Assembly: GCA_030648715.1 (NCBI GenBank)
Contig: JAUSGZ010000017.1
Span: 5,108 to 69,107, forward strand
Source of the DNA: a bacterium
Lineage (GTDB): Bacteria; Patescibacteriota; Patescibacteriia; Buchananbacterales; GWA2-38-13
Direction of reading: 5' to 3'
DNA: 64,000 nucleotides
In this document: positions 17,055 to 48,190 of the stretch, piece after piece
Layout of the letters: every line of letters starts with the position of its first letter
Position numbering within the stretch: the stretch's first letter is position 1
The notes under the pieces: generated by a model
What the model was told of the DNA's origin: nothing
Database searches by the model: none
The model's input: the letters and a program-made list of their open reading frames with translations, nothing else
Made by a program: the position numbers and the translations under genes

Positions 17055-17258
17055 TGTGTCACCCCCTTTCCTTATAGAATTGACAGCGGAAATATTGTTT
17101 CCGCGTGCCTCGTGGTAGACGCTGAGCGTTGTCCGTACCACATCGGCTACGCTCAGTATAGCCGATTTCCAGTCCTTAGGTAAACCGTAAAGTTATCAAC
17201 AGTCACCCGGTACTGCTTGACTCAGTATAGCAAAAAAATGAGATAACAGCAATGAAAA

Positions 17259-18464: not shown

Positions 18465-18577
18465 AACGTAAGCTCAAAACGTAAAATGCAAAACGAAAAT
18501 CTTAGGAATCGGTCCCGCCGACGGCGGGACTTTGATAGTTTGCGCTTTGCATTTTGCGCTTTGCATTTTGCATTTCT

Positions 18578-20037: not shown

Positions 20038-20054
20038 AGGCAGCGTATCCCCAG

Positions 20055-21785
20055 TTAGAGTTTGGTCACGCGGTACACCTCTTCGAGCGTGGTTTTCCCG
20101 GACAGCACCTTCAGCAAGCCGTCCAGACGCAAGGTGATGTACTTTTGCTTCGCCAGGGCGATAGTAACCTCGCGCGGATGAAACCCCGAGGTAATGAGCT
20201 CTTGGAGTTCGGGGGTGAATTCGATGGCTTCAACGACCGCCACTCGGCCTTGATACCCGGAATTCGCGCACCGCGTGCAACCCTTTCCCTTCGTGAATGA
20301 CAGCTTCTCATGCGACACTCCCTTGGGCCAGTATTCGTCGGGAATCGCCACAATTTCCGCTTTGATCGCCGCCACCGTTGCCGCGGGCACCTCAACCGGC
20401 TTGGCACAGTACCCGCAGATACGTCGCGCCAAACGCTGCGCCATTACGACGTTCACCGTCGAGGCGAGCAGGAACGGCTCAACCCCCATATCCATCAGGC
20501 GCGGAACCGCACCGACAGCGTCGTTCGTGTGCAGGGTCGAAAGCACCAGGTGGCCGGTGAGGCTGGCGTGAATCACGAGCTCGGCCGATTCCTGGTCGCG
20601 GATCTCGCCGAGCATGATGATATTCGGGTCCTGGCGCAAAATGCTGCGCAATCCCGACGCGAACGTGTAGCCCACCTCCGGATTGATCTGCGACTGGTTC
20701 ACTCCCTCCACGTAGTACTCCACGGGGTCTTCCAGGGTAATAATATTCACGCCCTCCTTATTCAGCATGGTCAGGATAGTGTAGAGCGTGGTTGTTTTCC
20801 CTGAACCGGTCGGGCCGGTCATCAGCAGCAACCCGTTGGGCTTGGCAATACCGCGGGAAATGATCGCAATATGCGGCGCGGAAAACCCCAGGTCCTCCAG
20901 CGTCGGAACCTTCAGCGAGACATCCAGCACGCGCATCACTACCTTTTCCCCCTCGAACAGCGGCAAGGTGGAGACGCGGAAGTCGATCTCGCGCCCTTCA
21001 ATGGTCAGGCGGATGCGGCCGTCCTGGGGTTTGCGGGTCTCATCGAGCTTGAGGTTCGCCAACACCTTGATGCGGGCGACGATCGCCGAATGAATGTAGC
21101 GCGGGAGCCGCAGGCTGGTGCGCAGAATGCCGTCAATGCGGTAACGGACGCGCGTTTCATGCGGCTCGGGCTCGATATGGATGTCGGAAGCGCGGCCGTC
21201 GATAGCGTGCCGGATGATGACGAGCACCATCTTGGACACCGGCGCCGATTTCACGACCTCCTGCAGATCTTTTTCCGTCACGCGCGTATCCAGCTCCGTC
21301 ACCTGTTCGTTGACGCCCGCCAGCGCCTCCTCGGCCTCCTTGCTGAGTTCGCCGTACTGCCGGGAGGTTTGACGCCAGCCCGTTCCCGAGATCATGAAGT
21401 AGCGCGCCGTAAACCCGCTCTCCTGGGCAAGGAAATCAACGGCCTCGATCGCTTTAAAATTCTGCGGATCGACCATCGCGACCTTGACTTCGTTGCCCTC
21501 GCGGTCAAAGGCGATCATCTGGTAGTTCTCGGCCGCGGACGCGGGGATCGTATTGAGCACGTTGGGGGCAATGACCTTGCCGGTCAGGTCAATATAGGGC
21601 ACACCCAGCATCGCCGCCTTCACCTGGGTCAGCGTTTCCTCATCCATCAACCCCTCCTTCACGATCTGCCGCTCAAGCGCGACGGGGTCGGCGCCGGCCT
21701 GCTGCAATAAGGCGTCCGCCTGCTGGGCGGAGATGGTATTGCGTTCCTGGAGCGCGGTGATCAGCAGTTTTACATCGATCGGCAT
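20055..21785 (-). CDS. pilB: Type IV pilus assembly ATPase PilB (GspE family)
   Basis: Walker A LMTGPTGSGKTTTLYTIL, Asp box, His box LSTLHTNDAVGAVPRL, and a C-terminal CxxC...CxxC Zn motif (CGYCAK...CTRCANSGY). Trimmed to MPIDVKLL (ATG at 21783..21785). Confidence 0.9.
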   Translation of the reverse strand: MPIDVKLLITALQERNTISAQQADALLQQAGADPVALERQIVKEGLMDEETLTQVKAAMLGVPYIDLTGKVIAPNVLNTIPASAAENYQMIAFDREGNEVKVAMVDPQNFKAIEAVDFLAQESGFTARYFMISGTGWRQTSRQYGELSKEAEEALAGVNEQVTELDTRVTEKDLQEVVKSAPVSKMVLVIIRHAIDGRASDIHIEPEPHETRVRYRIDGILRTSLRLPRYIHSAIVARIKVLANLKLDETRKPQDGRIRLTIEGREIDFRVSTLPLFEGEKVVMRVLDVSLKVPTLEDLGFSAPHIAIISRGIAKPNGLLLMTGPTGSGKTTTLYTILTMLNKEGVNIITLEDPVEYYVEGVNQSQINPEVGYTFASGLRSILRQDPNIIMLGEIRDQESAELVIHASLTGHLVLSTLHTNDAVGAVPRLMDMGVEPFLLASTVNVVMAQRLARRICGYCAKPVEVPAATVAAIKAEIVAIPDEYWPKGVSHEKLSFTKGKGCTRCANSGYQGRVAVVEAIEFTPELQELITSGFHPREVTIALAKQKYITLRLDGLLKVLSGKTTLEEVYRVTKL

Positions 21786-21801
21786 ACGCGAGCAAAAAAC
21801 T

Positions 21802-22140
21802 TCATTGCGTCGTGGGGGTCGTGGTCCCAATGTAGGGCAGCGGTTCGAACGGATTGGTACGGCCGGTCGGCCCGGCCTCGACGGGCAACGGCACCACCTG
21901 TCGCAACTCGGTGAACTGCCGGCTGGTAAAGACCGGCGGTTCCGCATTGAATGCCGGCGGCGGCGGGTACTGCACTTGGGCGCTATCGGCAAACTCTTGC
22001 TGCCATTGGGTCGGGACCACGGCGGTATCGGTGTTCACCACGTTGGTATACAACAGCCAGCCGATCGTCACGATCGTCACTACCAGCACAAGGGTAAGGC
22101 TGATGAGTTTCCCGGGGCTTGTTCGGCGGGGGGCGAGCAT
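21802..22140 (-). CDS. Small single-pass membrane protein of the pilus operon (unknown function, Pro-rich periplasmic tail)
   Basis: MLAPRRTSPGKLISLTLVLVVTIVTIGWLLY, then a Pro-rich segment. It is tightly packed between pilO and pilB and has no prepilin motif. Confidence 0.4.
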   Translation of the reverse strand: MLAPRRTSPGKLISLTLVLVVTIVTIGWLLYTNVVNTDTAVVPTQWQQEFADSAQVQYPPPPAFNAEPPVFTSRQFTELRQVVPLPVEAGPTGRTNPFEPLPYIGTTTPTTQ

Positions 22141-22148
22141 AGTTGGTG

Positions 22149-22766
22149 CTAACGCGGCCAATAGTACGCCTGCATCGAAATGGAGAATACCGTATCGTCG
22201 CTGGCGGTAAAATTGATACTGATCACGTCGATCAGCCGGAGGTTGGATTCAAGGTTCGTCAGCAGCTGCTTGATCCTGCCGTAGTTGCCGCGGGAAACGC
22301 TCAAATCGATACGTACGGACCGCAGATCGGACAATGGCCGCGCTTCCGGCGGCACAGCTGCCTCGCCCGCGCCGCCACTGCTCGCAGCGTACTCGGTGAA
22401 TTGGACGCCATTCACCAGCAACCCGCTCTGCCGCGCGATCTCGGCGACCTGCACCAGCAGTCCGGGCAGGTCCGGCTCGGCGGGCAGCAACGACTTGAAT
22501 CGCTCGATCTGCGACAAATTGAAACGGCTTTTCCGCTCCTGCAGGGTGTGCAAGGCTTTCAGATGACCGTCCAAATAATCGGCCTGCGTCCTGGTCTGGA
22601 GCAGATTATAACGACGATGCGTGCGAATTTCCTCCCACCCTCCTTTGATGAACCACAGATACCCGCACACCAAGACGATCACCACGCTCAAAATAATGAG
22701 CTCAAGGTAAAAGCGGGAAAATACCTTGAACAGCTGGACGCGGATTTTCGGCCACGAAATGCTCAT
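22149..22766 (-). CDS. pilO: Type IV pilus assembly protein PilO
   Basis: N-terminal TM (LELIILSVVIVLVCGYLWFI), a coiled-coil segment and a C-terminal PilO-like domain (LPGLLVQVAEIARQSGLLV...ISMQAYYW). ATGA coupling with pilN. Confidence 0.7.
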   Translation of the reverse strand: MSISWPKIRVQLFKVFSRFYLELIILSVVIVLVCGYLWFIKGGWEEIRTHRRYNLLQTRTQADYLDGHLKALHTLQERKSRFNLSQIERFKSLLPAEPDLPGLLVQVAEIARQSGLLVNGVQFTEYAASSGGAGEAAVPPEARPLSDLRSVRIDLSVSRGNYGRIKQLLTNLESNLRLIDVISINFTASDDTVFSISMQAYYWPR

Positions 22767-24556
22767 GGGGCAAACTCCAAGGGCTCAAAGAATACTTCGG
22801 GGCGAAGTATCAACCCGACGGAAAAGTCCACCTGCAGGATCTGCTTGGTCACTGCGTCGGTGATGGCCGTCGCGCTGGAAATATCCGCCCGCTGGATGAC
22901 ATCAGCGGCCTGACGGAACGCGACGATCTGCCGCGCCACGCTGCGGTAGTCGCGGCCGTGCGCCGAGAGTGCCAGCGAACCGTCCGCGCCTGAAGCGAAT
23001 GTGGTGTAGTACACTTCGTCGATGGTGGTGCGCTCCAGCGCGGCAAGCGCCTTGGTCCAGTGGCGGTGCCGCTGCAGCAGATCTTCCAGCAATTTCACAT
23101 CGCGCTGGATCGCGGAGGCTTCGTCGACGAGACCGCGGTACTGGTCGATCTGTTCCACCAGGATCTTAATGCGCTGTTCTTCCCGCTCGATCTCATTGCC
23201 GATGAGATAATCGTACCAGCTGATGAGTTGGCTCATGGTCAGGACCACGAACACGCTGACGCCGATCGCCGACAGGTAGAGCAAGAACTTCCGCGATAAG
23301 TTCAATTCGGGGTGTCGGGCGTACTCTTCCGGGATCAGGTTGATCGCCAAAGTTTTTGTCGGACGCTCCACTGTTTTGCCAGGCTTGAGGGGAAGTTTGG
23401 GTGGTACCGGTTGCGGCGTGATCTTTGGAACAGGTACCGGCTGAAGTTTGGGAGCGGCCATCGCGGTTTTTGCCGGCGCTGGCGGCGGGACAGTCGTTGG
23501 CGGCAACATCGTCAGCCGAGGCGGGACCGGGGGAGCAGCCGGCGGCATCGGCTTTGGCGGCGGGGGTGGCACGGGTTTTACGGGCGGCAACGGCGCGAGC
23601 TTGGGCAGCGGCGGCAGTGACAATTTCACCGGTTTTGGCTTGCGGCGGAACAGCGACTTCAGCCATGCCCAAAACGTTCGCCGCGGCTTTTTTTGCAACG
23701 GCTGCTTTCCCGGCACGGACAACGGCCGCGGTGAAACGATCTTGACGGCGGGGACGGTCGGCTTGGGGGGCGGAGGCGGCGGAAGGAGCGGCTTGAGCTG
23801 TGGCAGCGTCGGCTTTACCGGCTTGGGAGGACGGGCAAACAACTGGAGCAGGCGCTGCCACAACGACTTTCTCGGCGGACGCGGCATCCGCGGCAACGCG
23901 GGACGGATAACGACCGGCGGTAGCACGGGAACTTTAACCTCCACGCGCGGCAGCAAAGGCGGCGGCAACGGCTGCGGCCTGACCGGCGGTACCGCGGGTG
24001 CCACCACGGGCCGGGTTAACGGCAAGGGCGGCCGCGTGAAAAACGATCTCAACCAGCCCCAAAAACCGCGGCGCGGTTTTTTGAACACCCCCACGGCCAC
24101 CCCGCGGCTCACGGATTTGCGCTGAGCGGCTTCCACCTCGCGCCTCACCGCCTCCGCCAGTTTTGCGACCTCGCGATCGTTCAGATGGTACGCACTCGGG
24201 CGCACGGACGGCGCGGCGGGCGAAACTCGCGGTGGCGCTGCCGGCCTGGCGGGCAGCGGCGGCAAGGTGGTAATGGCGGGTTTTGCCGCACCCCCACGCG
24301 GCACCACCACACGTTCCAGTCTTGGTAACGGCGTTGCGGGTAATGGCGGCAATAGTGGCTCGTTCGGGGGCAACGGCCCGGGCCGAGGGACGACCGGCCG
24401 GCCCATGCCGGCGCCCCCGTGCTGCAGCTTTGATCCTCCTGGACGGTCGGGGTTGGTCAGACGCATCTCCACCACCTTGGGCGTTTTGCTCAAACGCTTG
24501 CGCTCGGCCTCTTCCTGGCCGCGCAGTTCGTCAGGTAATAGGTTGATCTCAACCAT
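22763..24556 (-). CDS. pilN: PilN-like protein with ~410-aa proline-rich cytoplasmic N-terminal extension
   Basis: The C-terminal ~180 aa are a canonical PilN (INLIPEEY...TM helix LLYLSAIGVSVFVVLTM...coiled coil...periplasmic domain). The N-terminus begins with a second MVEINLLPDEL motif and is followed by ~400 aa of P/K/V-rich low complexity. Confidence 0.7.
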   Translation of the reverse strand: MVEINLLPDELRGQEEAERKRLSKTPKVVEMRLTNPDRPGGSKLQHGGAGMGRPVVPRPGPLPPNEPLLPPLPATPLPRLERVVVPRGGAAKPAITTLPPLPARPAAPPRVSPAAPSVRPSAYHLNDREVAKLAEAVRREVEAAQRKSVSRGVAVGVFKKPRRGFWGWLRSFFTRPPLPLTRPVVAPAVPPVRPQPLPPPLLPRVEVKVPVLPPVVIRPALPRMPRPPRKSLWQRLLQLFARPPKPVKPTLPQLKPLLPPPPPPKPTVPAVKIVSPRPLSVPGKQPLQKKPRRTFWAWLKSLFRRKPKPVKLSLPPLPKLAPLPPVKPVPPPPPKPMPPAAPPVPPRLTMLPPTTVPPPAPAKTAMAAPKLQPVPVPKITPQPVPPKLPLKPGKTVERPTKTLAINLIPEEYARHPELNLSRKFLLYLSAIGVSVFVVLTMSQLISWYDYLIGNEIEREEQRIKILVEQIDQYRGLVDEASAIQRDVKLLEDLLQRHRHWTKALAALERTTIDEVYYTTFASGADGSLALSAHGRDYRSVARQIVAFRQAADVIQRADISSATAITDAVTKQILQVDFSVGLILRPEVFFEPLEFAP

Positions 24557-24561
24557 GCTGC

Positions 24562-25704
24562 TTAGGAAATCTCTTTCATTCCCAGACCGATAGCGACGGA
24601 AAACCGCGGACCGATCTCATCCAGTGCCGGCTTCAGTTCCTCGGGACAGATGACGCGCGCCCACGGATCGCCCAAAAACACGCGGAGTTGCAGCAGATTC
24701 CCCAAGTATTGCGGAAGGTTCGCGAGCAGCGACGACCCGCCGGTGAGGATCACGCGCTCGATCGGCGGCCGGCCCTGGCTGCGGTAGAGGTTCAGGCTGT
24801 AGCGGATCTCATCGACCACCGGCGCCAGCGCCTGGACGATGGTCGTGGGGATGCTGCCCGCCGCGGTCCCCTGCTGCATGCCGATGTCGTATTTGAGTTG
24901 CTCGGCGCGGTCGAGCGAGACGTTGAGCGCCGTGGCGATTCCCCGGGTGATGGTCAGCCCGCCGACGTTGATGCTGCGGTTCAAGTACGGCACCCCGTTC
25001 TGGGCGATCATGATATTGGTCACGGTGAAATCCATATCCACCAGCATGACCGTCGCCGGGTCTGAACCGATCAAGCTGCGCACCAGCGAGAATGACTCGG
25101 TATCCAGCGCCAGCAGCGTCAACCCGGCCTCGCGGAACAGCGTCAAGTAGCGCCGCACGAGCGCTTTCGGCGCGGCCGTCAGCAGCACTCGGGTATTGCC
25201 CGCCTGCTTGCGATGTACCATCTTGCCGAAGAACCGCATGCCGTTGAACGACAGCTTCTCGGGGTCATTGGGGGTGTGTCCGCTGGCCTTGCCATCCGCC
25301 ACGGCGACCGGCGCATCGGTCGGCAGAATATCCCAATGCAGGTTCATTTCATCGATCGGCAGCGGAATGACCTTCTTGGCCTCCCAGCGCACGGCCGCGG
25401 CCAGCTCCTTGGCGGACAGTTCCGGCAACGTGATGACCGAAGAGAACACCGAAAATGCCGGCAGCGCGGAGATGGCCACGCGACTTCCCACTTTAGCCTT
25501 GCGCACCGTTTCACGGATCAAGCCAGCCGTCATCCGCAGGTCCTGTTCGCTGTCGTCCTTGGATTGGTAGTCCAATGGATGGTCAAAATAGCCGTACGTC
25601 AAGAGCCGCGGCCGGCCGCGGTCATTCTTCAGCTCAACGATTTTCACGCTGTGACTGTCGACGTCCACTCCCAGATAGCTGGTAGCAGCGGAAAAAAGAG
25701 CCAT
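24562..25704 (-). CDS. pilM: Type IV pilus assembly protein PilM (actin-like ATPase fold)
   Basis: SYLGVDVDSHSVKIVELK at the N-terminus and the PilM_2/FtsA-like fold. It is the first gene of the pilMNO-...-pilB-pilT-pilC operon. Confidence 0.85.
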   Translation of the reverse strand: MALFSAATSYLGVDVDSHSVKIVELKNDRGRPRLLTYGYFDHPLDYQSKDDSEQDLRMTAGLIRETVRKAKVGSRVAISALPAFSVFSSVITLPELSAKELAAAVRWEAKKVIPLPIDEMNLHWDILPTDAPVAVADGKASGHTPNDPEKLSFNGMRFFGKMVHRKQAGNTRVLLTAAPKALVRRYLTLFREAGLTLLALDTESFSLVRSLIGSDPATVMLVDMDFTVTNIMIAQNGVPYLNRSINVGGLTITRGIATALNVSLDRAEQLKYDIGMQQGTAAGSIPTTIVQALAPVVDEIRYSLNLYRSQGRPPIERVILTGGSSLLANLPQYLGNLLQLRVFLGDPWARVICPEELKPALDEIGPRFSVAIGLGMKEIS

Positions 25705-26135: not shown

Positions 26136-27608
26136 TCAGCGGGAAGAGGGCGGGTAGCGGGCACACCCGAGCGCATCGTCGGTCGGATCGACCCCAATGC
26201 CAGGGTATGGAAGGGGCAGCTTCAACGGACTGCCGAGGAAAAGGTGCCCCAACGTCGCGACGGCGTCGGAAATATCGACATCACTGTCGTCGTTCACGTC
26301 AGCCGCGTCCAGGCAGGACAGGTCCGGGCCGCCAAGGAAGAGGTACGTCAGGGTGTAGACGGGGTCCGAAATGTCGCGCTCGCCATCGACGTTGCTGTCG
26401 CCGCGCATGAACGTGACGAGCAGCGGCACGGTCCTGATGACCAGGATGTCGTAGTTGGGAGTCGGTGACTCCTGGACAACCCCGTACCCTGTGATGAGGT
26501 AGCTGCCATCCGGGGCAACGCCAAGGTATCTAGGCACATCGCGGCCAGCGGTGCCGTAGTGGGCCTCCCACTGGAGGTTGCCTGCGGCATCGGTCTTGAC
26601 GAGGTAAACGTCAACATTGCCGGCAGTGGTGCCGTCCGTGGTGCCGGCGAGTATGAACCCGCCGTCGCTATCCTGCGCCAAGCGCAACCCGTCTTCGTGA
26701 AACTCGGGAAGCCCGAACTGCTGGTACCATGCAAGCTCGCCGGCAACATCCACCTTCAGCAGAAAGGCGTCGAAGGGCCTGCTGATGTTGGCGTACGCGG
26801 CGCCGCAAATAACGACCCCGTCGTCCACGGCGACCATCGAACGGCCGGAAAGGTGCACGGCAGCGCCGTACGAACGCTGGCCGACGACGTTGCCGCCAGA
26901 ATCGGTAGTGATGAGGACCACCTCAACCTTGCCATCGGTACTGGCACCAGAAAGCAGGAGGTACCCTCCACCGTCCAGCTCCAAAACGGCACTGGCGCTG
27001 GTGATACTGTCATCACCGAGCAACTGCAACCACTGCTGGTTGCCTTCAGCATCCACCTTTAGTAAGAGGATACGATTGATGGCGCCGTTCTCGACCGGAA
27101 CCTGGCTAGCATCGCCGACTGCCACATAGCCGCCGTCGCTGGTGGCCCGTACATCATAGAGACCATCATAGCCATCAGTTCCGTAGGTCTGCTGCCACTG
27201 CAGCACCCCGATGTCGCTCACCTTCATCAGAACGACATCGGGAACCTCCAGCACTGGAGGGTTCTGGAACACTCCAGCCATAACGAACCCATCGCTGGTT
27301 TGGTACGCGACCTGCGGTACCTCGTACCCCTCGCTGCCGAAGGCAGCTGCGGTGTTCATCCCCCCGCCTGGGTCGAGCGACAGGAGACAACTGAGGTTAT
27401 CTCCTACGCCGTACTCACGCGACACCGCGATGACGCTCAATGAACCGCCAGTACCGGACACCGCGCCGATCCCGACGTCCATCGAGCCGCCGCCGTAGGT
27501 GCGGACCACCGCCTCCGGCGGATTGCCCGCAATTGCGGGAACAACGAACATCGCGATGCAGAGCATCACCCCCACTGCGCCCAGACCGAACTGAACCCGT
27601 GTAGCCAT
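26136..27608 (-). CDS. Secreted repeat (beta-propeller-like) protein with C-terminal type-I dockerin-like domain
   Basis: Signal peptide MATRVQFGLGAVGVMLCIAMFVVPAIAG. There are ~6 repeats of a DGG[YF]hhhG ~50-aa unit. The C-terminus carries two Ca-binding dockerin loops, DSNVDGERDISD and DVNDDSDVDISD, each followed by an amphipathic helix. Confidence 0.7.
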   Translation of the reverse strand: MATRVQFGLGAVGVMLCIAMFVVPAIAGNPPEAVVRTYGGGSMDVGIGAVSGTGGSLSVIAVSREYGVGDNLSCLLSLDPGGGMNTAAAFGSEGYEVPQVAYQTSDGFVMAGVFQNPPVLEVPDVVLMKVSDIGVLQWQQTYGTDGYDGLYDVRATSDGGYVAVGDASQVPVENGAINRILLLKVDAEGNQQWLQLLGDDSITSASAVLELDGGGYLLLSGASTDGKVEVVLITTDSGGNVVGQRSYGAAVHLSGRSMVAVDDGVVICGAAYANISRPFDAFLLKVDVAGELAWYQQFGLPEFHEDGLRLAQDSDGGFILAGTTDGTTAGNVDVYLVKTDAAGNLQWEAHYGTAGRDVPRYLGVAPDGSYLITGYGVVQESPTPNYDILVIRTVPLLVTFMRGDSNVDGERDISDPVYTLTYLFLGGPDLSCLDAADVNDDSDVDISDAVATLGHLFLGSPLKLPLPYPGIGVDPTDDALGCARYPPSSR

Positions 27609-27838
27609 GGAAAGACCTCCTTTCGAGAGTTGTTGCCTGTTTTCCAGGCACGGGCACACCAAATTTTTTGCCGTACCACACAATGGCGCGGCCAAAGTTC
27701 ATAGCAATTGACTGATTTTCAAAGTACCGGACGTAACGTATCAACTGCCATCAATAAATATATATCATACGTCATCATCCACCAACCGAAGTATACTAAA
27801 ATTACAAAATTTTGTCAAGAGTAAGCCAAAATTTCCGC

Positions 27839-30800
27839 CTACTTCCAGACCGGCAGCGATTGAACGGCCTGTTCCAGCCCCAAGGGAGTATTTGCGAGGA
27901 TTCGGCCGTCGTAAATGAAGCGCTCGGCGGGATTCACCAGGTCGGGATAGACGCGTTCCAGCAGGAATTGCCGCGCCACAAATACCCCGCGCGCCGTCAA
28001 TGCCTTCGGTGACGCCGTATCGTCGCCGGTCATGATGCTGCCGCAGGTCAGAGGATCAGCGGCGGCGTTGCAGGCCGTCGCGCGGTTTGCCCAGTCGCCC
28101 AACGCAATGAGTGTGCTGTCCACCTGGGTAACGCTCGGGTCGATCTGCACGCCGCCCAAAACCAGCCACGCGGCAGACGCGATATTCTTCAGGCTGGTGG
28201 GGCCGGGCGCGTCGGTGTACTGAACGCCGTCACCAATATACAAGTTGCCGTTGATGAGGAACAGCGCCGACCCATCCTGACTGCCAAAATTATTGGCAAA
28301 TGAGAGCGCGCTCGAGGTGACGCAATCCCCGAGTGTACTGCCGTCCCAGTAGTAAATGTTGCCGCCCAGCACCGAGGGCAGCGACGACCCACTACCGTCG
28401 CAGGTATTGTACGTTGCCAGGTCGATGACGCGGGCGGCACCATAGCGGTTGCGCAACTTATCCAGCACCCCGCCAACGCTGGAAAAATTTGACCCGTTGA
28501 ACCCCTGCAAGAACCACAGGGTGCCTGCCGGCGTGCTGAAATCGTTGGTATAGCTGGGGAAAGACTTGGTCCAACCGGCATTGCTGTAGAATGGCAGTTT
28601 GCACGCTCCGCTGCCGAAATCGGCCCCGGATGCGCAGGTGGACGACCAGTTGTTGATGCTGCCGCCCGAAGTCAGGAGGAACGTGCTGTTCAGCGTCGGC
28701 GGCGGCGTCAGCGCCTCAAGGTTGTGTCCGGCAAAGACATCGCCGTACTGGGTCTGTGCCCACGGCTTGGGGTCGGAGAAAAGGCAATTGCTGACATTTC
28801 CAAAGTCATCGAGCGCGCAGATGTTGAAGTAGATCGTGCCGGTCAGCTTGGTCCACAACTGCGTCAAACAATTCGCTCCTTGATTACAGGTAATAACGCC
28901 AAGGTTGGCATCAAGTCGCGGACGCACCGTCCAGTCGCAGGCTAATGTATCCTCCTCGTGCGGCAACCCGCTCGCCGCGGCGGAGATATCCTCCCACACG
29001 AACGGGCCATCCGCGGCGTTGCCGTTGGTATCTTGACGGGCGATTATATCGGCGCTGATACTGCCAAACCAAATCTCGTAGTGCGCTTGGTTGTTCGTCC
29101 ACGACTGATACTCGCCCGAGGTCACCTCGCCGGTCGCCCACGGCCAGGTAATATCGTAGCGATTGACCGTATAGGCGCAAGGGAAATCATCCGACGTGCC
29201 CTGTGCCCCAAAGTTTGGGACCGGCAACGCCGGCAACGTCGGCCCTTGCAAGTCCAGCATCATCCGCTGGCGGCGCGTCCATTCTTTCCTGGTTTCTGCG
29301 TCGGCTTGGGTGCACGCCTGCGTGCAGGACGGCTGGCAACTGGCATCGCAGAGGGTGATGTTATTGTACAATCCTGGCCCAGAGAAACAGCCCGGGTCGG
29401 TATCCCACGGACAGCTGCTGTTGCCCTGCTCGAAATTATTCACTTCCAGCCACACTGGCAGACGCCGGTTGGCATACGTCACGCTGCCGGCCGGACAGCC
29501 TTCCCCATAGTTGAAGCAGCTGCTGGCCGCCGCCCAGTAGAACGTCACGTCGGTTAAATAGTTGAGATCAAAACCAGTGTTGGGCGCCGGCCAGGGGCGC
29601 GTTACGACGGGATCCGTCTGGCCGATGCGCGACGTCAGCGGCCAAAACTCATAGCCATTGTCCACCGAAGGATGCGGGGGGGGTGGCGGCTGCGGCAATC
29701 CCGCAGGCGGTTGCATTTTTGGCAGCGGCAGCGGCGGATCGGCTGGCGACAACGGCTGCTGGCTTGTATTGTCGCTAAAGTAGCTCTCGGAACACCAATA
29801 GCTTTCGCCGTCGCAGAACGGCCACCAGCCCGTGCCGGGCGGCGTCGTACTTATGTCTGATGGGTCTTTCCAGGTTGCCTGCTCGGTCGCAAACCACAGG
29901 CCAAGCTTCAGGTCTGACCCCTCGTAGTCGCCCATTTGGACCGTGATCTTCACGTCGCCGCGCGCCAATTCGCGCGTCGCCAGGTCGGAACTCCGCAAGG
30001 GTTTATCCTGGGTCGCGAACCGGTCGGCGTTGCCCGCCGCATCACCATGGAAACGAATGATGGGTGCAACGCACGAAGCCGCGGTATTTGGTATTCCCTC
30101 TTCATAGAAGTAGTTCAAGTCGTCCTTATACGGCGACGCATAGGATGCCGGCCACGTATTGCCGCCGAGGTAGCTGCGATTGCCGCAAAAGTTAATGTCA
30201 CTGGTACAGTCCGGGTCCATTACCGCCGGACAATCGGCGTCGCACACCCCATCATCGGCCGCCAGGCAACAATTTCCGGCCGTATTCGTGCAGCCATTGA
30301 TACAGTCGGGGTCCACTGCGAGGCCGCCGGCATCAATACTGCAATCCGGGTCGCAACGGTTGTCGGTATTGGCCTGGCAGCAACCGTCCGCCGAATTGTT
30401 ACAGAGCGTCGCGCAGTCCGGGTCCGCGGGCAGCCCGTCCGAGTAGGTAAAGCCGCAATTGTAGTCGCAGACGCCGTTCAACCGGCGGTCGCAGGCAGCG
30501 CCCGAATAGGCGATGGTCAGCGCGCCACAATCCGGGTCACGGCCGGCGGGACATCCATAGTCGCACATCCCGTCCAGCCATGGCTGGCAGCTGGCGACGG
30601 CCGGCCACTGCGCAGGAGTCGTACAGTCAGGGTCCACGCCTGCAGCGCAGTCGGTATCGCAAGCGTTATCGACGGCCGGGAAGCAGCAATCCACCGCCAC
30701 GCAATCAGGGTCCACCGGCTGGCCGCCGGTCAGCGGGCCGCAATCAATATCGCACACGCCGTTACTCCGGGCAAAGCCGGTGGCGGGATCGGTATTGCAG

Positions 30801-33800
30801 CCGGCGCCGCCGTCGGTGGAAACCGTATTGCCGGGAACATACGCCGGCCGCCAGGAGCAGAGGCCGGTGCGGCAATCCGGGTCGTTGGAACCGCTCACTC
30901 CCCTCTCCAGACAATCCGGGTCGCAGATACTGTCGCTTTGGCCGTTGCACGTGCCGTCCGGCCCGTCGTCACCGCTCCCGTTGGTGCCGCAGTTGGGGTC
31001 CAAGCCCGCCGGACAGTCGGGATCGCAGAACCCATCGCTGGCAACCGGCCAGCAGCCGTCGTCGCTGCCATTGCCGATGCCGCCGCAATCCGGGTCGACG
31101 ATGCTGGCAGCGAACGACCCATACGTGCAGTCCGCATCGCAATCGTCCGGCTCGTCATTGCTGGCATTGCAGCAGCCGTCGGTCGCATTGCTGCACACGC
31201 GCGGGCCGCAGTCGCGGTCGTAATTTCCGCTAAATGAGCAGTCGTAATCGCAGCCATCGCCCACCGGCGGCGGGTTGGGGCACGAAAAATTCTTGACCGC
31301 ATTCGCCGGCTTCCAGCAGTCCGGGTCAACCGCGCCCGGACAGTCGGCGTCGCAGACCGTATCGATGACGGGCAGGCAGCAATTACCGGCAGCGCTGGTA
31401 CAGACCGGACAATCCGGGTCCACAACCTTCCCCTCCGCATCCAAACCGCAATCCGGGTCGCAGACATCCGGGGTGTCATTCTGGGCCAGGCAGCACCAAT
31501 CATGGCCGTTCTGGCACGCCTGTTCGAACGCCCCGCGGTCGGCTGCCGCCGAGCCGATGGATGACTTTTGGATATTGCCGGTCGTCATCCCGCCCACCTG
31601 CACCTCCCAGAACCGGTTGGCCGGATCGGCTCCGTGGCGGAGGTCGTTGCGGCCGGTCAAGGCGCCGCCGCCCGTCCCGCCGCCGCCCAACGGATCGCTC
31701 GTGCAGTCAACGCACGACAGGTCGAAATTGGCCACGCTCTTCATGCTGATATTGTCGCCTTCCATGGTGCCGCTGCCCGGCGTAATGCGCGCATCAAGGA
31801 TGGTGACCTGGCTGCTGTCAGTAACCTCCACGCCATGGCCGAACGGGTTACGGATCTCCAAGCCATCGAACGTCGTGGTCGCATCGCTGAATCCGGTATT
31901 CCTCCCGACGATGCGGACGCACGGCCCGATGCAATTTTCGAGTTCAAGGTTCCGCGCATTCACCGGACCGGCGTAGTTGAATTCCAGCGGGTCGGCGCCC
32001 GACAATTTGCTCGCCACCCCCTTGAGGTTGGTGAACTGAAAAAAGGTGCTGTTGTTGGCGACTTGGAGGTGGTAGGTGCGCAACGGCGTACAGGTAGCGC
32101 CAATGCCGGCGCAGTCGGCGGCCGCGGTACACCGTTTTCCCCAGTCCAGCGTCGAACCCTGGCAGGTTTTCTCGAATTCCGGGTTGCTCAATGTCTGCAC
32201 CACGCCAGCGTCAACGTACTCACTCGTACCGTAGAAGTAGTAAAGCGGCGGGTGCAGGGCGCAGGTCACCGTCAGCTTCGGACGGTTCGCCGCCGTGCCA
32301 TTCTCCTCCTTATCGAAAGCGAACCCATCATCGTCGGCGGCGCCGTTATCGGGCGCGATCAGCAAACCTTCCGCGAGCCGCAGCCCCGACACCCACTCCT
32401 GCACCAGCTGACGGCCGTAGGCGTTGAGGGTATGGGTGTAGCTTCCCAATACCCCCGTACCGAAGCCCGTACCGCTGGCTAAATTGATGCCGTCCTGGTC
32501 CTGGAACGTGGATTTCGCCCCAGGAATGTTCCACGAGCCGGACGCAAACGGCCTATTCCAAGTCGCCTCGGCATCAATAAAGTAGTTCCGCAGCCCGTAG
32601 ATGGCAAACCGGTCCGCGGAGCTGTTCGTGACGTTGACCGTGAGCTTCACGTCCAGGACGGTGCAGCCGGGGGGCAGCACAAGATCCTGGGTTGAAAAGG
32701 GCACCCACCGGAGAAGTACGCGTGTCTCCTTGCCGGTGCCGTTGTTGTCGATATCACCGTCCACCGCCAAGGTCGCGTCGCCGTTCTTGGGCGTCGTCGG
32801 CTCCTTCTCATTAATGACGGTGTCGGACGTATCGTTGAACGTGGCCGTCGGACCCACGCCATCCTGCAGCTGGTAAGTGACGACGGTCGCGGACCCGCTG
32901 GGGCCGGCCGCATTCGTGCGCGCGACCGTGTGGCTGTAGTACTGGGTCGCGGAAAAATCCTCTGCGCCGTCGACGACGCGCGAGCCCGGGATACGCCCGA
33001 CCCAGAAGTAGGGCTGCTTGAGCGCGGTACCGGTGGAGGTCACGCGGTTGCCGAACCAGGTGATCTGCGTCGAATCGCCGATACGGATGCCCGGCGGGTC
33101 CTCCACATCCAGGCCGCCGAACCGGTCCGGGATCTGAACAACGTTGCCGCGAAAGATCATATTCCGAGCGTAGGAAAGCTGGATGCCCGGCCCATTGTTG
33201 TCTAAAAATTGATTGCCATCCACATCGGTGTAGCCGGACTGGAGGTACTCGTCCTCGGAAAACGCGGCCCCGCCTTGCGCGTTGCCGTTGAAGGAATTGA
33301 ACGCGATCTGCGTGCCGCTGCCGGCATCCTCCGCGCGCAGCCCCCACCCGGTATTGTTATTCACGGCGCTGTAGTTGAGGTACTGGTTGAATGGCCCGTC
33401 CAGCCATATCCCATCGCTCCCCTCGCGGAGCGTGGCGCCGGCGGCGTTCTTGCCATTCTCCACGCTGGCGAGCTTGTAGAACACATTGAGTCCGTATCCG
33501 CGGAGGTGCATGCCACCCGCAAAATTCCGGGTCGTGGTGTTGTTATACTCGTTCGGCTGGAGCCCGATCGGCCAGGTCCGAACATCATAGACGGAATACC
33601 CGTAGCACGGCGACGTGGGCGAGATATAGTTGCAGCTCGAGCCAAAACCCACATTCCACCCGAAAAAATTCCCCCAACCGGATTGCCCGCCCTCCGCGTA
33701 CACGCCGTACCGGCTGACGCTCCCCGAGAACGTATTGCGCCAAAAGAAGTTGTGGGTCGTGTCGGCATCGCGGCCGCTGTACGAACGCGTGAGCGCGACA

Positions 33801-36361
33801 TTGTCGCCCTGGCTGTCGGAGATGGTGTTCTCGTAGAACTGGCCGTACTGCGAGCCGTAGAGGAGGAGGCCGATGGCGTCCGTCGCGCCCCCCGTCCCGG
33901 TATCGTCAATGGTCGTATGATGGGTAATGACCTGGTCCACGTCGTACGCTAGGAGCCCGCCGTTGGTATTGGCCGAGAAAAGCGCGTTCCACACCAGCAG
34001 CCGGTTGGCGACGACCCCGCGCGACTGCGCCCGCACCCCCTCGTTGTTGGTCAGCAGCTGGATGCAGCCGGCAGTCGCACACCCCAGCGTCGTGCTGGAC
34101 GTGTCGAACATCAGCACGCCGTAGCCGTTGCTGGAAAACTGGCTGTTGCTGACCGCAATGTTGTAGCTGTTGACCGCATAAAGCCCGACCTGCGCGCCGC
34201 TGACCGAAACGTTGGTGACCTTTTGGGACGAGGCAACGGCCGTGTCGCATTTCCCATTGTCCAGGCTCATGCCGACGCACGCCAATTTCAGCGGGTCGCC
34301 GTTGGCGAGCGCCATGCCGCCCCCCAACAGACCGCCGAAATTCCGCACTTCGATGTTCTTGGCGCCAACGATGGTCAGGTGGCCAAGGTTGGCGAGGAAC
34401 GGGTCGGTAACGCCGTCAAATACCAGACCGTCAATGGTCGGCCCGAAATAGTAGAGCACCTGTTTGCCGGTGACACCCAGCCAGTTGAACGGCATGGGTG
34501 CGCCGCCGCCGGGCCGATAGGCGGGATTGGCGAAGACGTGACGGTAGTCGTTCAGCCGCAGACCCGCGGGGTAATTGGGGTCAACATCGGAAACGCCGTC
34601 CCCATCCACTCCTTTTTCGCAATACACGCCATCGCCATCCTTATCCGGGAAACAATCCTGGAGGTGGTCGGACAGCACGTTGTAGTACTGGCCGTAGCGG
34701 CCGTCGCGGATGGTCCAGACATTATTCCAGCGCAGGAGAAAATCCTCGGTGTTCTCGAGCTTGATGCCGTTGCCAAACCCCTCCAGCTCGCAGCCGACGA
34801 TAGTGCCGCGCCGGCGCGTTTGGTACGTGTTGTTGCTGGCAAGCCGCGTGGACGTGGCGTGGATGCCGACTGTGCTGGTGGCAAAAAGGTCCAATACCGC
34901 CGGGTTCAGCCGCAGCTTGCCGCCGAAGTCAAACTGTGCCTCCCAGTCGCAGTCCAAAATGAGATTGTCGGCCGCAAAACCGATGGCATCGCGCGTGCCA
35001 TCCCCCGGCGGATACGGCGGATCGAACGTGTAGAGGGTATTAGGCGCCAGACACGTGTTTTCCTGGAGAATTCTCGAAGAAGTCCACGTCCCGCCCGCCA
35101 GGCACGCCTTGCGATAATTCTCGGCGTTGTAGAGATCGGTTCGCGGCAGCCCATAACAATCGGGGTCGACGGATGGAGTGACGCAGTCGTAATCGCATAG
35201 ATTGTTGCTCGCGGTGTTGCAGCTGCCTGGCGTTCCGGTATCCTGCGGTTCGACGCTTGTGAAAATGTTGTCCTTTGTGACATCGTTGCCCGGCGATTGG
35301 AAACTGATGTCGTGACCGACCGACTCCAGACGGATACCCACCCCGCGGCCTGAAAATACGTTGTTGTAAACGTTGATGTAGTCCATCCGCGGGGTCAACG
35401 CGCCGCCGTTGTCCAAATACAGGTCGTTGAGCGTGCAGTCGGTGCTCATCGGCACGGTTTTGGTCGCACAGTCAATGTAGTTGGAGTGGATAGGCAGCCG
35501 GGCGGCGGCCTGGCCCAGCGGCGTACTCAAATAGATACCGGCCTCATTGGTGTAACTGTCGGCCGCCGTCTCGTAGACGGTGACGCGGTTGCCGGAAATT
35601 TCGCTGTCGGGCATGTGCAGGTTGGCAAGGTAGATACCCTGCTGGCCCACCTCCAGGATGTCGTTCTCCAAAATTTTTATGCCGGTCCCGTTACTGGCGC
35701 CGAAACTCCCGCGAATGCCGATCTCGGTCGTTGCCAGCACGCTGCCGGTCCAACGGCTGCGGATGGTATTGTTCTGCAGCGTCCAGTTGACCGTACTCTG
35801 AAAGCTGATGCCCTGGTCGAATCCTTCAATGACGCAATTTTTAATGGTGACGTTCTGTTTGCAGGCATCCTGACCGCCGCTGGCGCAGGGCTGCGAGCAG
35901 GTGTCATACTGCCGGGCCTCCGCAAAGCAGGCGGTACACGACCAGCCCCCGCGGAAGTAATCCCAGCGCGCGTCGATGCCGACGCCGGGAATGTTGCCGA
36001 TGTTATTGCGGTTCGTGTACAAGCGGTGCCCCTGGCAATCAATGGTGATGGGGGTGGCATCGTCGGTCGCGGCGATGCGCAAACCGTAAAAATATTCATC
36101 CGACTGCACGTTGCAGTGGCCCTCGCCGGCGTAGTAATCGGACTCATACCCATCGCACGGCCCCAGGTCGCTCGCCAGGGTAACATCGCCCACCACGTAG
36201 CTCCCGCAGGCGCACTGCCCCTGCCCGCCGCCGCACTCGTCATAGGAATACTGCTGGGCACCGACCGCGCGGGGCAGCAGGAACATCGCGCCGGCAGCAA
36301 CCGCTGCCGCTGCCCACGAGCGTACCCTGAACCCTTGCTGCAAAATACTGAGATGCCGCAT
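27839..36361 (-). CDS. Giant secreted protein (2841 aa): parallel beta-helix repeats, TSP3-like Ca-binding motif, Cys/Asp-rich tandem repeat array, large C-terminal domain; probable surface adhesin/fibre
   Basis: Signal peptide MRHLSILQQGFRVRSWAAAAVAAGAMFLLPRAVGAQQ. Right-handed beta-helix repeat signatures occur throughout (NNTIR...G.Y...N, GVLMFDTSSTTL...). It contains DKDGDGVYCEKGVDGDGVSD and ~13 CDxDC-x(5-10)-DPDC repeats. A GTG at 36427 is an alternative start. Confidence 0.8.
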   Translation of the reverse strand: MRHLSILQQGFRVRSWAAAAVAAGAMFLLPRAVGAQQYSYDECGGGQGQCACGSYVVGDVTLASDLGPCDGYESDYYAGEGHCNVQSDEYFYGLRIAATDDATPITIDCQGHRLYTNRNNIGNIPGVGIDARWDYFRGGWSCTACFAEARQYDTCSQPCASGGQDACKQNVTIKNCVIEGFDQGISFQSTVNWTLQNNTIRSRWTGSVLATTEIGIRGSFGASNGTGIKILENDILEVGQQGIYLANLHMPDSEISGNRVTVYETAADSYTNEAGIYLSTPLGQAAARLPIHSNYIDCATKTVPMSTDCTLNDLYLDNGGALTPRMDYINVYNNVFSGRGVGIRLESVGHDISFQSPGNDVTKDNIFTSVEPQDTGTPGSCNTASNNLCDYDCVTPSVDPDCYGLPRTDLYNAENYRKACLAGGTWTSSRILQENTCLAPNTLYTFDPPYPPGDGTRDAIGFAADNLILDCDWEAQFDFGGKLRLNPAVLDLFATSTVGIHATSTRLASNNTYQTRRRGTIVGCELEGFGNGIKLENTEDFLLRWNNVWTIRDGRYGQYYNVLSDHLQDCFPDKDGDGVYCEKGVDGDGVSDVDPNYPAGLRLNDYRHVFANPAYRPGGGAPMPFNWLGVTGKQVLYYFGPTIDGLVFDGVTDPFLANLGHLTIVGAKNIEVRNFGGLLGGGMALANGDPLKLACVGMSLDNGKCDTAVASSQKVTNVSVSGAQVGLYAVNSYNIAVSNSQFSSNGYGVLMFDTSSTTLGCATAGCIQLLTNNEGVRAQSRGVVANRLLVWNALFSANTNGGLLAYDVDQVITHHTTIDDTGTGGATDAIGLLLYGSQYGQFYENTISDSQGDNVALTRSYSGRDADTTHNFFWRNTFSGSVSRYGVYAEGGQSGWGNFFGWNVGFGSSCNYISPTSPCYGYSVYDVRTWPIGLQPNEYNNTTTRNFAGGMHLRGYGLNVFYKLASVENGKNAAGATLREGSDGIWLDGPFNQYLNYSAVNNNTGWGLRAEDAGSGTQIAFNSFNGNAQGGAAFSEDEYLQSGYTDVDGNQFLDNNGPGIQLSYARNMIFRGNVVQIPDRFGGLDVEDPPGIRIGDSTQITWFGNRVTSTGTALKQPYFWVGRIPGSRVVDGAEDFSATQYYSHTVARTNAAGPSGSATVVTYQLQDGVGPTATFNDTSDTVINEKEPTTPKNGDATLAVDGDIDNNGTGKETRVLLRWVPFSTQDLVLPPGCTVLDVKLTVNVTNSSADRFAIYGLRNYFIDAEATWNRPFASGSWNIPGAKSTFQDQDGINLASGTGFGTGVLGSYTHTLNAYGRQLVQEWVSGLRLAEGLLIAPDNGAADDDGFAFDKEENGTAANRPKLTVTCALHPPLYYFYGTSEYVDAGVVQTLSNPEFEKTCQGSTLDWGKRCTAAADCAGIGATCTPLRTYHLQVANNSTFFQFTNLKGVASKLSGADPLEFNYAGPVNARNLELENCIGPCVRIVGRNTGFSDATTTFDGLEIRNPFGHGVEVTDSSQVTILDARITPGSGTMEGDNISMKSVANFDLSCVDCTSDPLGGGGTGGGALTGRNDLRHGADPANRFWEVQVGGMTTGNIQKSSIGSAAADRGAFEQACQNGHDWCCLAQNDTPDVCDPDCGLDAEGKVVDPDCPVCTSAAGNCCLPVIDTVCDADCPGAVDPDCWKPANAVKNFSCPNPPPVGDGCDYDCSFSGNYDRDCGPRVCSNATDGCCNASNDEPDDCDADCTYGSFAASIVDPDCGGIGNGSDDGCWPVASDGFCDPDCPAGLDPNCGTNGSGDDGPDGTCNGQSDSICDPDCLERGVSGSNDPDCRTGLCSWRPAYVPGNTVSTDGGAGCNTDPATGFARSNGVCDIDCGPLTGGQPVDPDCVAVDCCFPAVDNACDTDCAAGVDPDCTTPAQWPAVASCQPWLDGMCDYGCPAGRDPDCGALTIAYSGAACDRRLNGVCDYNCGFTYSDGLPADPDCATLCNNSADGCCQANTDNRCDPDCSIDAGGLAVDPDCINGCTNTAGNCCLAADDGVCDADCPAVMDPDCTSDINFCGNRSYLGGNTWPASYASPYKDDLNYFYEEGIPNTAASCVAPIIRFHGDAAGNADRFATQDKPLRSSDLATRELARGDVKITVQMGDYEGSDLKLGLWFATEQATWKDPSDISTTPPGTGWWPFCDGESYWCSESYFSDNTSQQPLSPADPPLPLPKMQPPAGLPQPPPPPHPSVDNGYEFWPLTSRIGQTDPVVTRPWPAPNTGFDLNYLTDVTFYWAAASSCFNYGEGCPAGSVTYANRRLPVWLEVNNFEQGNSSCPWDTDPGCFSGPGLYNNITLCDASCQPSCTQACTQADAETRKEWTRRQRMMLDLQGPTLPALPVPNFGAQGTSDDFPCAYTVNRYDITWPWATGEVTSGEYQSWTNNQAHYEIWFGSISADIIARQDTNGNAADGPFVWEDISAAASGLPHEEDTLACDWTVRPRLDANLGVITCNQGANCLTQLWTKLTGTIYFNICALDDFGNVSNCLFSDPKPWAQTQYGDVFAGHNLEALTPPPTLNSTFLLTSGGSINNWSSTCASGADFGSGACKLPFYSNAGWTKSFPSYTNDFSTPAGTLWFLQGFNGSNFSSVGGVLDKLRNRYGAARVIDLATYNTCDGSGSSLPSVLGGNIYYWDGSTLGDCVTSSALSFANNFGSQDGSALFLINGNLYIGDGVQYTDAPGPTSLKNIASAAWLVLGGVQIDPSVTQVDSTLIALGDWANRATACNAAADPLTCGSIMTGDDTASPKALTARGVFVARQFLLERVYPDLVNPAERFIYDGRILANTPLGLEQAVQSLPVWK
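30180..31516 (-). repeat. Coding tandem repeat array within the giant protein: ~13 copies of a 25-40-aa Cys/Asp-rich module (CC-x6-8-C-D-x-D-C-x5-10-[VL]DPDC)
   Basis: Examples are CCLAQNDTPDVCDPDCGLDAEGKVVDPDC, CCLPVIDTVCDADCPGAVDPDC, CCQANTDNRCDPDCSIDAGGLAVDPDC and CCLAADDGVCDADCPAVMDPDC. It is mirrored on the plus strand as 'QSGS'-repeat shadow ORFs. Confidence 0.6.
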
Positions 36362-36405
36362 CACTGGAGGGAAATGCAGAACAGCGTTATACTGAAACCG
36401 TCCGT

Positions 36406-36909
36406 ATGGGAAAAAATCGCGCTCCACTTGCCGGCCTCGTCATTGCCCTTGGGCTCGTCGTACTTGGGTTGTTCCTGGGCGCGCGCTGGCTGACCACATC
36501 GCGACGTGCACCCGTCGCACCGGTAACCGTCTGGGGCCGGTATCTTGAGCGTACCCCCGACTCGCTGACAGTGACCGTTGACCAGTTGCCGCCGGCGGCA
36601 ACCCAACAGGCAAATCTCCTGCCGATGGGCACGGAACGGCGTACAGTCTTTCCGCTCACGCCGCAAACGACCATGGTGGCGGAATATTTCATGGGCGACG
36701 GTGAACTGGCAACGCTCATCCTGTCGGAACCGCTGAATTTCAATAACCTCTTGCCGGGTACCGTACTCCAGATCGAAGCCGTTCCCCTCGGCCGGGGAAA
36801 ATGGCGCACGCTGGCAGTCCGGCGCCGCCAGTCCATTGCCCGCCCGGATCCTGCTGCGGAAGATACTGCTGCTACTACGAACATCCCGCCACCTATCAGC
36901 CCCCCATAA
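36406..36909 (+). CDS. Hypothetical membrane-anchored protein (divergent from giant-protein gene)
   Basis: N-terminal TM LAGLVIALGLVVLGLFLGARWL, 167 aa, no recognisable family. Confidence 0.4.
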   Translation: MGKNRAPLAGLVIALGLVVLGLFLGARWLTTSRRAPVAPVTVWGRYLERTPDSLTVTVDQLPPAATQQANLLPMGTERRTVFPLTPQTTMVAEYFMGDGELATLILSEPLNFNNLLPGTVLQIEAVPLGRGKWRTLAVRRRQSIARPDPAAEDTAATTNIPPPISPP

Positions 36910-48175: not shown

Positions 48176-48190
48176 GTTCTAAAATCCTTA

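Follow-up and report, generated by a model that had tools for sequence, protein, structure and literature searches.

Organization of the giant gene

The window is a stretch of 64,000 nucleotides (positions 5,108 to 69,107 of the forward strand of contig JAUSGZ010000017.1, assembly GCA_030648715.1) from a bacterium of the Patescibacteriota. It contains a giant gene encoding a putatively secreted protein in which a Cys- and Asp-rich unit, the CDxDC-DPDC unit, was identified by a regular expression and by dissection with a hidden Markov model (HMM). There are 13 such units in the protein, 12 of them consecutive and one isolated. The features of the gene are as follows (aa, amino acids).

27839..36361, minus strand: gene of the giant secreted protein, 2840 aa from the ATG at 36361, stop codon included in the coordinates
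36257..36361, minus strand: putative Sec-type signal peptide MRHLSILQQGFRVRSWAAAAVAAGAMFLLPRAVGA, recognized by eye from a basic n-region, a hydrophobic Ala-rich core and an AVGA motif
35156..35251, minus strand: isolated Cys/Asp unit, aa 393-424 (…GSCNTASNNLCDYDCVTPSVDPDC), found by regular expression, HMM 20-29 bits
34568..34645, minus strand: acidic stretch DKDGDGVYCEKGVDGDGVSDVDPNYP resembling thrombospondin type 3 (TSP3) repeats, aa 595-620, Pfam TSP_3 13 bits, E = 0.087, cutoff 25
33023..33511, minus strand: top right-handed beta-helix segment, aa 973-1135, Pfam Beta_helix 3.3e-20, NosD 5.9e-18
30206..31522, minus strand: tandem array of 12 Cys/Asp units, aa 1636-2074, from regular expression and HMM dissection
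31522-31409, 31408-31316, 31315-31208, 31207-31085, 31084-30989 and 30988-30872, minus strand: array units 1-6 (high to low)
30871-30701, 30700-30623, 30622-30527, 30526-30413, 30412-30302 and 30301-30206, minus strand: array units 7-12 (high to low)
27842..30205, minus strand: conserved C-terminal region of 788 aa, strongly conserved in the orthologue alignment and outside recognized families

The longest open reading frame (ORF) of the gene spans 27839..36427 on the minus strand, with a GTG start at 36427, and encodes 2862 aa. The public NCBI call, P0035, is identical at 2840 aa and is named 'MAG: right-handed parallel beta-helix repeat-containing protein [bacterium]' (MAG, metagenome-assembled genome). 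Two families in Pfam-A, Beta_helix (PF13229) and NosD (PF05048), match the giant protein above their gathering scores, with 72.7 bits (cutoff 25.9) and 65.5 bits (cutoff 23.6), respectively; no other Pfam-A family matched, and NCBIfam gave nothing relevant. Both matches are in the N-terminal region, outside the Cys/Asp array, and weaker beta-helix matches are present elsewhere in the N-terminal 1600 aa. A search of PDB sequences with the N-terminal 1613 aa gave nothing useful, and the C-terminal 788 aa have no match in Pfam or among PDB sequences. Between the beta-helix and the array, aa 1195-1389 (32261..32845, minus strand) resemble by eye a carbohydrate-binding or 'DNRLRE/disaggregatase-related' beta-sandwich; the sole database signal nearby is a sub-threshold Disaggr_repeat match (E = 0.25) in an adjacent fragment starting at aa 1310.

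An earlier description of this window made from its letters without database searches, called here the sequence-only reading, had placed about 13 consecutive repeats at 30180-31516 in a secreted parallel beta-helix protein with one isolated N-terminal copy and a TSP3-type DxDxDG motif. The beta-helix is confirmed by the two Pfam matches, secretion agrees with the putative signal peptide read from the sequence, and the isolated copy was recovered at aa 393-424 by both the regular expression and the HMM. The array is real and lies on the minus strand, with measured ends shifted by a few codons (30206..31522). It holds 12 consecutive units, and a count of 13 is reached only with the isolated unit. 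The DxDxDG motif was not upheld, since it scores 13 bits against a cutoff of 25; the TSP3-like stretch is retained in the orthologue consensus.

The Cys/Asp unit

The array units are 26-57 aa long, and Cys makes up 13.5% of the array and Asp 17%. Shuffled sequences, 2000 each of the whole protein and of the array, were searched for the motif C-x(6-20)-C[DN]x[DNG]C-x(4-14)-D[PR][DN]C. It occurred 0 times in the whole-protein shuffles and gave a mean of 0.0025 matches in the array-only shuffles, which have the same composition as the array. A chance origin of the motif is excluded.

The consensus in the sequence-only reading required widening. The 'CC' doublet is present in only 6 of the 12 array units, the middle residue of CDxDC may be P, A, Y, I or T (two units read CDYGC and CDYNC), and the loop ahead of DPDC has 4-10 residues, with two units ending in DRDC and DPNC. 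An alignment of 108 HMM-selected units from 35 proteins (A3) gave the consensus xxC-x5-D-CC-x4-D-x2-C-D-x-D-C-x4-D-P-D-C of about 31 aa, in which four Cys are invariant. The register C-x7-8-C-D-x-D-C-x4-14-D-P-D-C is present in the 12 array units and the isolated unit of the window, as well as in all 108 units of A3, which had been selected by the HMM. All four core Cys are retained in 173 of 178 near-full-length HMM matches.

The number of Cys per unit is nearly always even (105 of the 108 units in A3): 85 units have six, 20 have four and three have five. The 12 array units contain, in order, 6, 6, 4, 6, 4, 4, 5, 5, 4, 4, 6 and 6 Cys, an even total of 60, and the two five-Cys units adjoin each other. 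The optional Cys occupy alignment columns 2 and 10; 80 units contain the two together and 20 contain neither, and five units that lack the column-2 Cys have a compensating Cys at column 22. Even Cys counts together with joint gain and loss of an optional pair are the classical signature of disulfide pairs. The units are thus probably disulfide-stabilized, as the sequence-only reading had supposed from the regular Cys spacing, with Cys parity as the main new support. A natural variant (P0013 aa 74-109) has lost C2 and C4 of the core jointly, which hints at C1-C3 and C2-C4 pairing.

Each unit also contains five acidic positions that are occupied by Asp in 81-100% of units, Asn being the commonest substitute at most of them. 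A role of these positions as Ca2+ ligands is plausible by analogy with the logic of TSP3 repeats and of the class A modules of the low-density lipoprotein receptor (LDL-A).

The predicted fold of the unit is consistent with stabilization by cross-links or by metal. AlphaFold2 applied to 178 aa without an alignment gave an unusable model with a predicted local distance difference test (pLDDT) value of 38, and a model of units 11-12 built with a 35-row two-unit alignment (A5) reached a pLDDT of 83 and a predicted template modelling score of 0.64. The latter model is devoid of helices and of strands at least three residues long. Such a coil-only model is expected for a fold that is held by cross-links or by metal.

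Conservation of the array

The giant protein was aligned with four orthologues, of which the fragment P0003 shares 82% identity with it and P0004, P0005 and P0006 share 43-45%. The Cys and Asp of the repeat skeleton are essentially all invariant across this alignment. Position-by-position matching extends to all but one or two units in L001, the nearest orthologue, and to roughly two-thirds of the units in P0004 and P0006. P0005, P0006 and the orthologues of L001 and L003 likewise keep the isolated N-terminal unit in its position. Conservation of the ORF over its whole length among the orthologues rules out a non-coding or compositional artefact.

The units of the window have a mean protein identity of 36% and a maximum of 62% (units 2 and 12). 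The sequence-only reading had proposed to look for recent expansion through DNA-level periodicity; Tandem Repeats Finder detected no DNA tandem repeat in 29800-31800, and the DNA copies of the units are 63-74% identical at best. Together these two results rule out recent expansion at the DNA level. As judged from the alignments, the array is old, position-specific and under purifying selection.

Comparison with known families and structures

The 447-aa array and its single and double units matched no relevant family in Pfam-A by hmmscan at E <= 10, and hmmscan of ten relatives found no relevant family. No relevant family was found with the most regular arrays (P0011 and P0016) against Pfam and NCBIfam, with a four-fold consensus concatemer against Pfam or with the window array against NCBIfam; short Cys-rich repeats are a hard case for these scans, which also missed MopE-like motifs visible by eye in P0011. 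The array gave a single weak match (E = 0.29) against PDB sequences by phmmer, a two-unit profile gave nothing there at E <= 10, and Foldseek returned 0 matches in PDB and BFVD. A search of the literature on DPDC or Cys-rich repeats in candidate phyla radiation (CPR) bacteria and in DPANN archaea found no description of the CDxDC-DPDC motif. The sequence-only reading had recognized no named Pfam family in the repeat, a view which the scans of the array, of its regular relatives and of the synthetic consensus support. It had named a match to a known family (TSP3, dockerin-like and others) as the result that would overturn it, and none was found in Pfam-A, NCBIfam or PDB searches.

Four known families were considered individually. 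LDL-A (PF00057) is ruled out by the hmmscan result and by hhalign, in which A3 aligned with an alignment of LDLR LA1-7 at 1.4% probability over 7 columns. This control alignment was validated on PDB, where it retrieved LDLR 1n7d at 2.7e-110 and 97 distinct sequences at E <= 1e-5, with proteins of the LDL-receptor family leading. TSP3 (PF02412, PF18884) matched neither the array or single units at E <= 10 nor the whole protein at E <= 1, the stretch at aa 595-620 being sub-threshold. Dockerin type I (PF00404) was rejected for the array, where hmmscan gave no match to it. The Myxococcus cysteine-rich repeat (TIGR02232 / DUF4215) was rejected on null results in NCBIfam and Pfam and on an hhalign probability of 0.8% against 11 repeats of this type from P0026.

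The CDxDC-DPDC unit nevertheless shares features with each of several known systems. Like LDL-A, it is a small (about 40 aa in LDL-A), probably extracellular module with near-absent secondary structure, putatively three disulfides (as in LDL-A) and a Cys-bracketed Asp/Glu cluster that is used in tandem. In LDL-A the acidic cluster (CDxxxDCxDGSDE) cages one Ca2+. LDL-A has the register CDGxxDCxDGSDE and is found in animals, whereas the unit has four obligatory and two optional Cys and the register CDxDC…DPDC and is found in CPR bacteria and archaea. TSP3 repeats, which in extracellular proteins are wound around Ca2+ into an extended 'wire', are also Asp-rich and coil-only and are disulfide-linked, as the unit probably is, and a sub-threshold TSP3-like stretch lies elsewhere in the giant protein; they differ in having DxDxDGxxDxxD motifs and one or two Cys per repeat, against CDxDC plus DPDC and four to six Cys in the unit. 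The Myxococcus repeat is a prokaryotic extracellular Cys-rich tandem repeat that co-occurs with the unit in large archaeal surface proteins such as P0026 and P0016, but its motif is CGNGxxExGEECD… and its length about 50 aa. It has previously been cited for Cys-rich proteins of CPR bacteria (PMC4736985). The Cys-rich extracellular proteins of Peribacteria described in the same paper resemble the giant protein in the kind of organism, in being large, secreted and Cys-rich and in their proposed attachment role; that paper describes overall Cys content and not the CDxDC-DPDC module. As a sequence family the CDxDC-DPDC repeat is new, but its kind, Cys-bracketed acidic repeats serving as extracellular spacers, is familiar, and it involves no new biological principle.

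Distribution in bacteria and archaea

An HMM was built from the units and searched, as the sequence-only reading had recommended. A profile of 23 units was searched against 1.84 billion representative proteins at E <= 1e-3, and only 34 proteins, all multi-copy, were matched in the full HMM scan of the protein set. They form three groups: giants orthologous to the window protein (P0003-P0006), secreted proteins 430-690 aa long with a common N-terminal domain, and very large proteins with a C-terminal transmembrane (TM) anchor and a Lys-rich tail. Where a source is named, the giants come from Patescibacteria/Parcubacteria MAGs and the others from Candidatus Woesearchaeota, Nanoarchaeota or an 'archaeon'. 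In a scan of species-representative genomes the closest orthologue, at 76% identity, came from 'Parcubacteria group bacterium Gr01-1014_31', and a Patescibacteria MAG contained another. Two more orthologues (L002 and L004) are in MAGs labelled 'uncultured Gammaproteobacteria'; the label of L002 is probably the result of mis-binning, because its contig shares its pilus-gene order with the Parcubacteria loci.

Because a protein that has only one or two units does not reach the E-value threshold with a profile of 31 positions, metagenome contigs were scanned with a degenerate DNA pattern (CDxDC-x4-DPDC). This pattern was found in at least 120 contigs, 98 of which have an HMM-confirmed unit. The commonest context (at least 47 ORFs) is a membrane-anchored protein of 230-310 aa that carries one or two four-Cys units. 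The order of elements in these proteins is signal peptide, variable ectodomain, CGDGxCExxENxxxCPxDCP, one or two units, Thr-rich linker, TM helix and basic tail, and the ectodomains are DUF333, BatD/CARDB-like or unknown. One such contig (L072) encodes the large subunit of archaeal DNA polymerase D (PolD DP2) and is thus archaeal. Rfam scans of 11 long metagenomic loci detected tRNAs only.

The signal peptides and C-terminal TM anchors of the giant protein and its relatives were recognized by eye, and on this reading the CDxDC-DPDC module is probably extracellular. It appears to be autonomous because it occurs singly, and, to judge from the domain layouts, it is combined with unrelated domains, typically adjacent to the membrane. 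So far, its distribution includes only CPR bacteria and archaea (DPANN where named). The sequence-only reading had missed that the module is shared with DPANN archaea, that it occurs singly close to the membrane and that the organism of the window is itself a CPR bacterium.

Two further Cys-rich elements were observed in the archaeal relatives. Proteins combining DUF333 ('putative hemolysin'), CGDGxCExxENxxxCPxDCP and CDxDC-DPDC are encoded in L010, L026, L028, L033, L100, L105 and others and are probably archaeal; the CGDGxC…CPxDC element in them recurs, contains four Cys and matched nothing in Pfam in these scans. The archaeal giants P0017, P0021, P0028, P0031, P0019, P0023 and P0024 contain long arrays of another Cys repeat of about 33 aa, C-x2-G-x-CD-x4-KWC-x-G-x-W-x5-YC-x-C-x3-D-x-C, with pairs of CDxDC-DPDC units on either side.

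Genes adjacent to the giant gene

A cluster of type IV pilus genes is located downstream of the giant gene on the same strand, beyond a gene for a second secreted protein.

26136..27695, minus strand: secreted protein of 519 aa with SDGG-type repeats and a dockerin-like acidic C-terminus, downstream of the giant gene, Pfam null at 1e-3
16527..25704, minus strand: type IV pilus cluster, comprising the following seven genes
24562-25704, minus strand: PilM, Pfam PilM_2 2e-33
22763-24556, minus strand: Pro-rich PilN-like protein, 597 aa
22149-22766, minus strand: ORF of 205 aa
20055-21992, minus strand: PilB-type ATPase, Pfam T2SSE 4.6e-125
18578-19657, minus strand: second T2SSE ATPase, taken as PilT-like by size and position, Pfam T2SSE 9.1e-21
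17259-18464, minus strand: PilC, Pfam T2SSF 3.2e-60
16527-17141, minus strand: prepilin with an N_methyl motif, Pfam N_methyl 8.5e-09

In L001 and L003 the giant gene is followed by ORFs of matching size and order, and the gene of the 519-aa protein is also syntenic there; the order is kept in L002 as well, which lacks the 519-aa gene; this synteny was matched by ORF size and order and not by domain scan. The giant gene is located beside a type IV pilus cluster in four genomes, which is a conserved neighbourhood and is not claimed as an operon. The 519-aa neighbour, which the sequence-only reading took for a dockerin-bearing protein, did not prove to be one, its C-terminus matching Dockerin_1 with 7.1 bits (E = 8.2). 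A strong promoter-like sequence, TTGACA-17-TATACT, is present at 27818-27790 between the giant gene and the 519-aa gene. The genes on the opposite strand upstream of the giant gene encode LemA, an M48 peptidase, a Clp ATPase, a PD40 protein and RadA.

The PilN-like protein has an extremely Pro-rich (P/K/V/L) N-terminus of about 400 residues, a single TM helix and a PilN/O-like C-terminus, and ORFs of about 610 aa occupy its position in L001 and L003. Elsewhere in the window, a second giant ORF (56007..63998, minus strand; at least 2663 aa) begins two bases from the window end and may extend beyond it. Its product is rich in Ala, Glu and Gln and coiled-coil-like, with N-terminal hydrophobic segments and no Pfam match. 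A TraG/VirB4-type P-loop ATPase (50201..52168, minus strand; PF19044, 8.4e-30) is encoded near it, and together the two genes resemble the conjugation-type type IV secretion cluster reported for Patescibacteria (PMC12102498). The region 46001..48000 has a GC content of 0.47, against about 0.61 elsewhere, and holds an ORF of 349 aa without a Pfam match. It is flanked by genes for tRNA-Arg (46076-46151) and tRNA-Ser (48088-48176), with a further tRNA-Ser at 48689-48777, and may be an insertion beside tRNA genes.

Proposed function

The reading considered probable, and held with somewhat more confidence than doubt, is that the CDxDC-DPDC unit is an autonomous, disulfide-knotted, acidic extracellular mini-domain, that the array acts as a stalk and that the whole protein is a surface fibre or adhesin encoded beside pilus genes. 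Each unit of about 31 residues would be closed by two invariant disulfides, with a third, optional one in most units, and would display five near-invariant Asp/Asn side chains that may cage Ca2+. Units joined head to tail would form a stiff, protease-resistant rod. In the giant protein this rod would separate the N-terminal beta-helix region of about 1600 aa from the conserved C-terminal region of about 790 aa, and in the archaeal relatives it would hold the variable ectodomain apart from the membrane anchor. That the array serves as a stalk or spacer is suggested mainly by the proteins in which one or two units lie between a variable ectodomain and the membrane. The giant protein would then be a cell-surface fibre or adhesin of an episymbiotic bacterium, a role which the sequence-only reading also favoured and which fits the conserved position beside the type IV pilus cluster. 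An attachment role has been proposed for large, Cys-rich proteins that CPR bacteria place outside the cell, and the genomes encoding them carry type IV pilus genes (PMC4736985). In cultivated Saccharibacteria, type IV pili are reported to be required for episymbiosis (PMC9894109).

Several points weigh against this proposal. The stalk role is deduced from domain order only. The conserved Asp-Pro could reflect Asx-Pro turns and not metal ligands. Anoxic groundwater is the habitat of many CPR bacteria and DPANN archaea, and disulfides outside the cytoplasm are less certain there. Lastly, a promoter-like site follows the giant gene, and no co-transcription with the pilus genes is therefore claimed.

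The alternative that survives best, which is still unlikely, is that the array itself is the ligand-binding part of the protein and forms a multivalent adhesive surface for glycans or proteins of the host envelope rather than a passive spacer. The acidic Ca2+ face of LDL-A modules is where basic ligands bind, and the surface of the array is highly acidic and conserved. Its units are conserved position-specifically and not homogenized, as if each had its own partner, and the organism is an episymbiont whose gene adjoins pilus genes. However, the small archaeal proteins place the unit close to the membrane, behind an ectodomain that is likelier to bind, and the loops between the Cys are free in sequence and in length (4-14 residues). 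The hhalign probability of 1.4% to LDL-A also argues against this function.

A slightly less probable alternative is that the four invariant Cys ligate Zn2+, Fe or Cu in metal-thiolate sites and that the array sequesters metal or is stabilized by it. Every unit provides the four Cys, in regular 31-aa arrays a CxxC spans the junction, made of one unit's last Cys and the first Cys of the following unit, the habitats are probably anoxic, and the AlphaFold2 model lacks secondary structure, as do small metal-knuckle folds. The behaviour of the optional Cys is difficult to reconcile with this proposal: they vary as a pair with compensatory relocation, which a disulfide explains and a tetrahedral site does not. 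Moreover, the proteins are probably secreted or surface-anchored, four-Cys units lack a junctional CxxC, no Pfam zinc-binding family was matched, and the spacing C-x7-C-x3-C-x8-18-C is unlike the paired CxxC knuckles of zinc ribbons.

That the unit is a highly divergent member of a known repeat (TSP3, LDL-A, dockerin, MopE-type or Myxococcus cysteine-rich), and hence not new, is very improbable, since its resemblance to TSP3 and LDL-A in Cys-bracketed Asp clusters and a coil-only fold, and the presence of Myxococcus-type and MopE-type motifs in the same archaeal proteins, are set against a Cys spacing that differs from all these families and against null results from Pfam-A/NCBIfam, hhalign, the PDB profile and Foldseek, while the LDL-A control profile works on PDB.

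Beyond the stalk reading, a broader proposal is put forward tentatively. The unit may have an undescribed fold and serve as a building block of surface stalks mainly in CPR bacteria and DPANN archaea, the two radiations of ultra-small episymbionts, with exchange between the two domains of life, and the giant fibre of the Parcubacteria may work with the pilus in host attachment. This extension is regarded as possible and is viewed with considerable reserve.

Significance

To our knowledge, the construction of the surface structures by which CPR bacteria and DPANN archaea attach to their hosts is hardly understood at all, and their largest proteins are mostly annotated as 'hypothetical'. The module is available as a searchable profile that annotates a conserved part of giant Parcubacteria proteins and of many archaeal surface proteins. 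It would mark its carriers as extracellular and oxidatively folded, and it ties one giant protein to a type IV pilus locus. As a compact, apparently autonomous, disulfide-rich scaffold of about 31 aa with variable loops, it may also interest protein engineers. If the broader proposal is true, the unit would be a sequence marker of the attachment apparatus of episymbionts and a candidate for gene transfer between bacteria and archaea.

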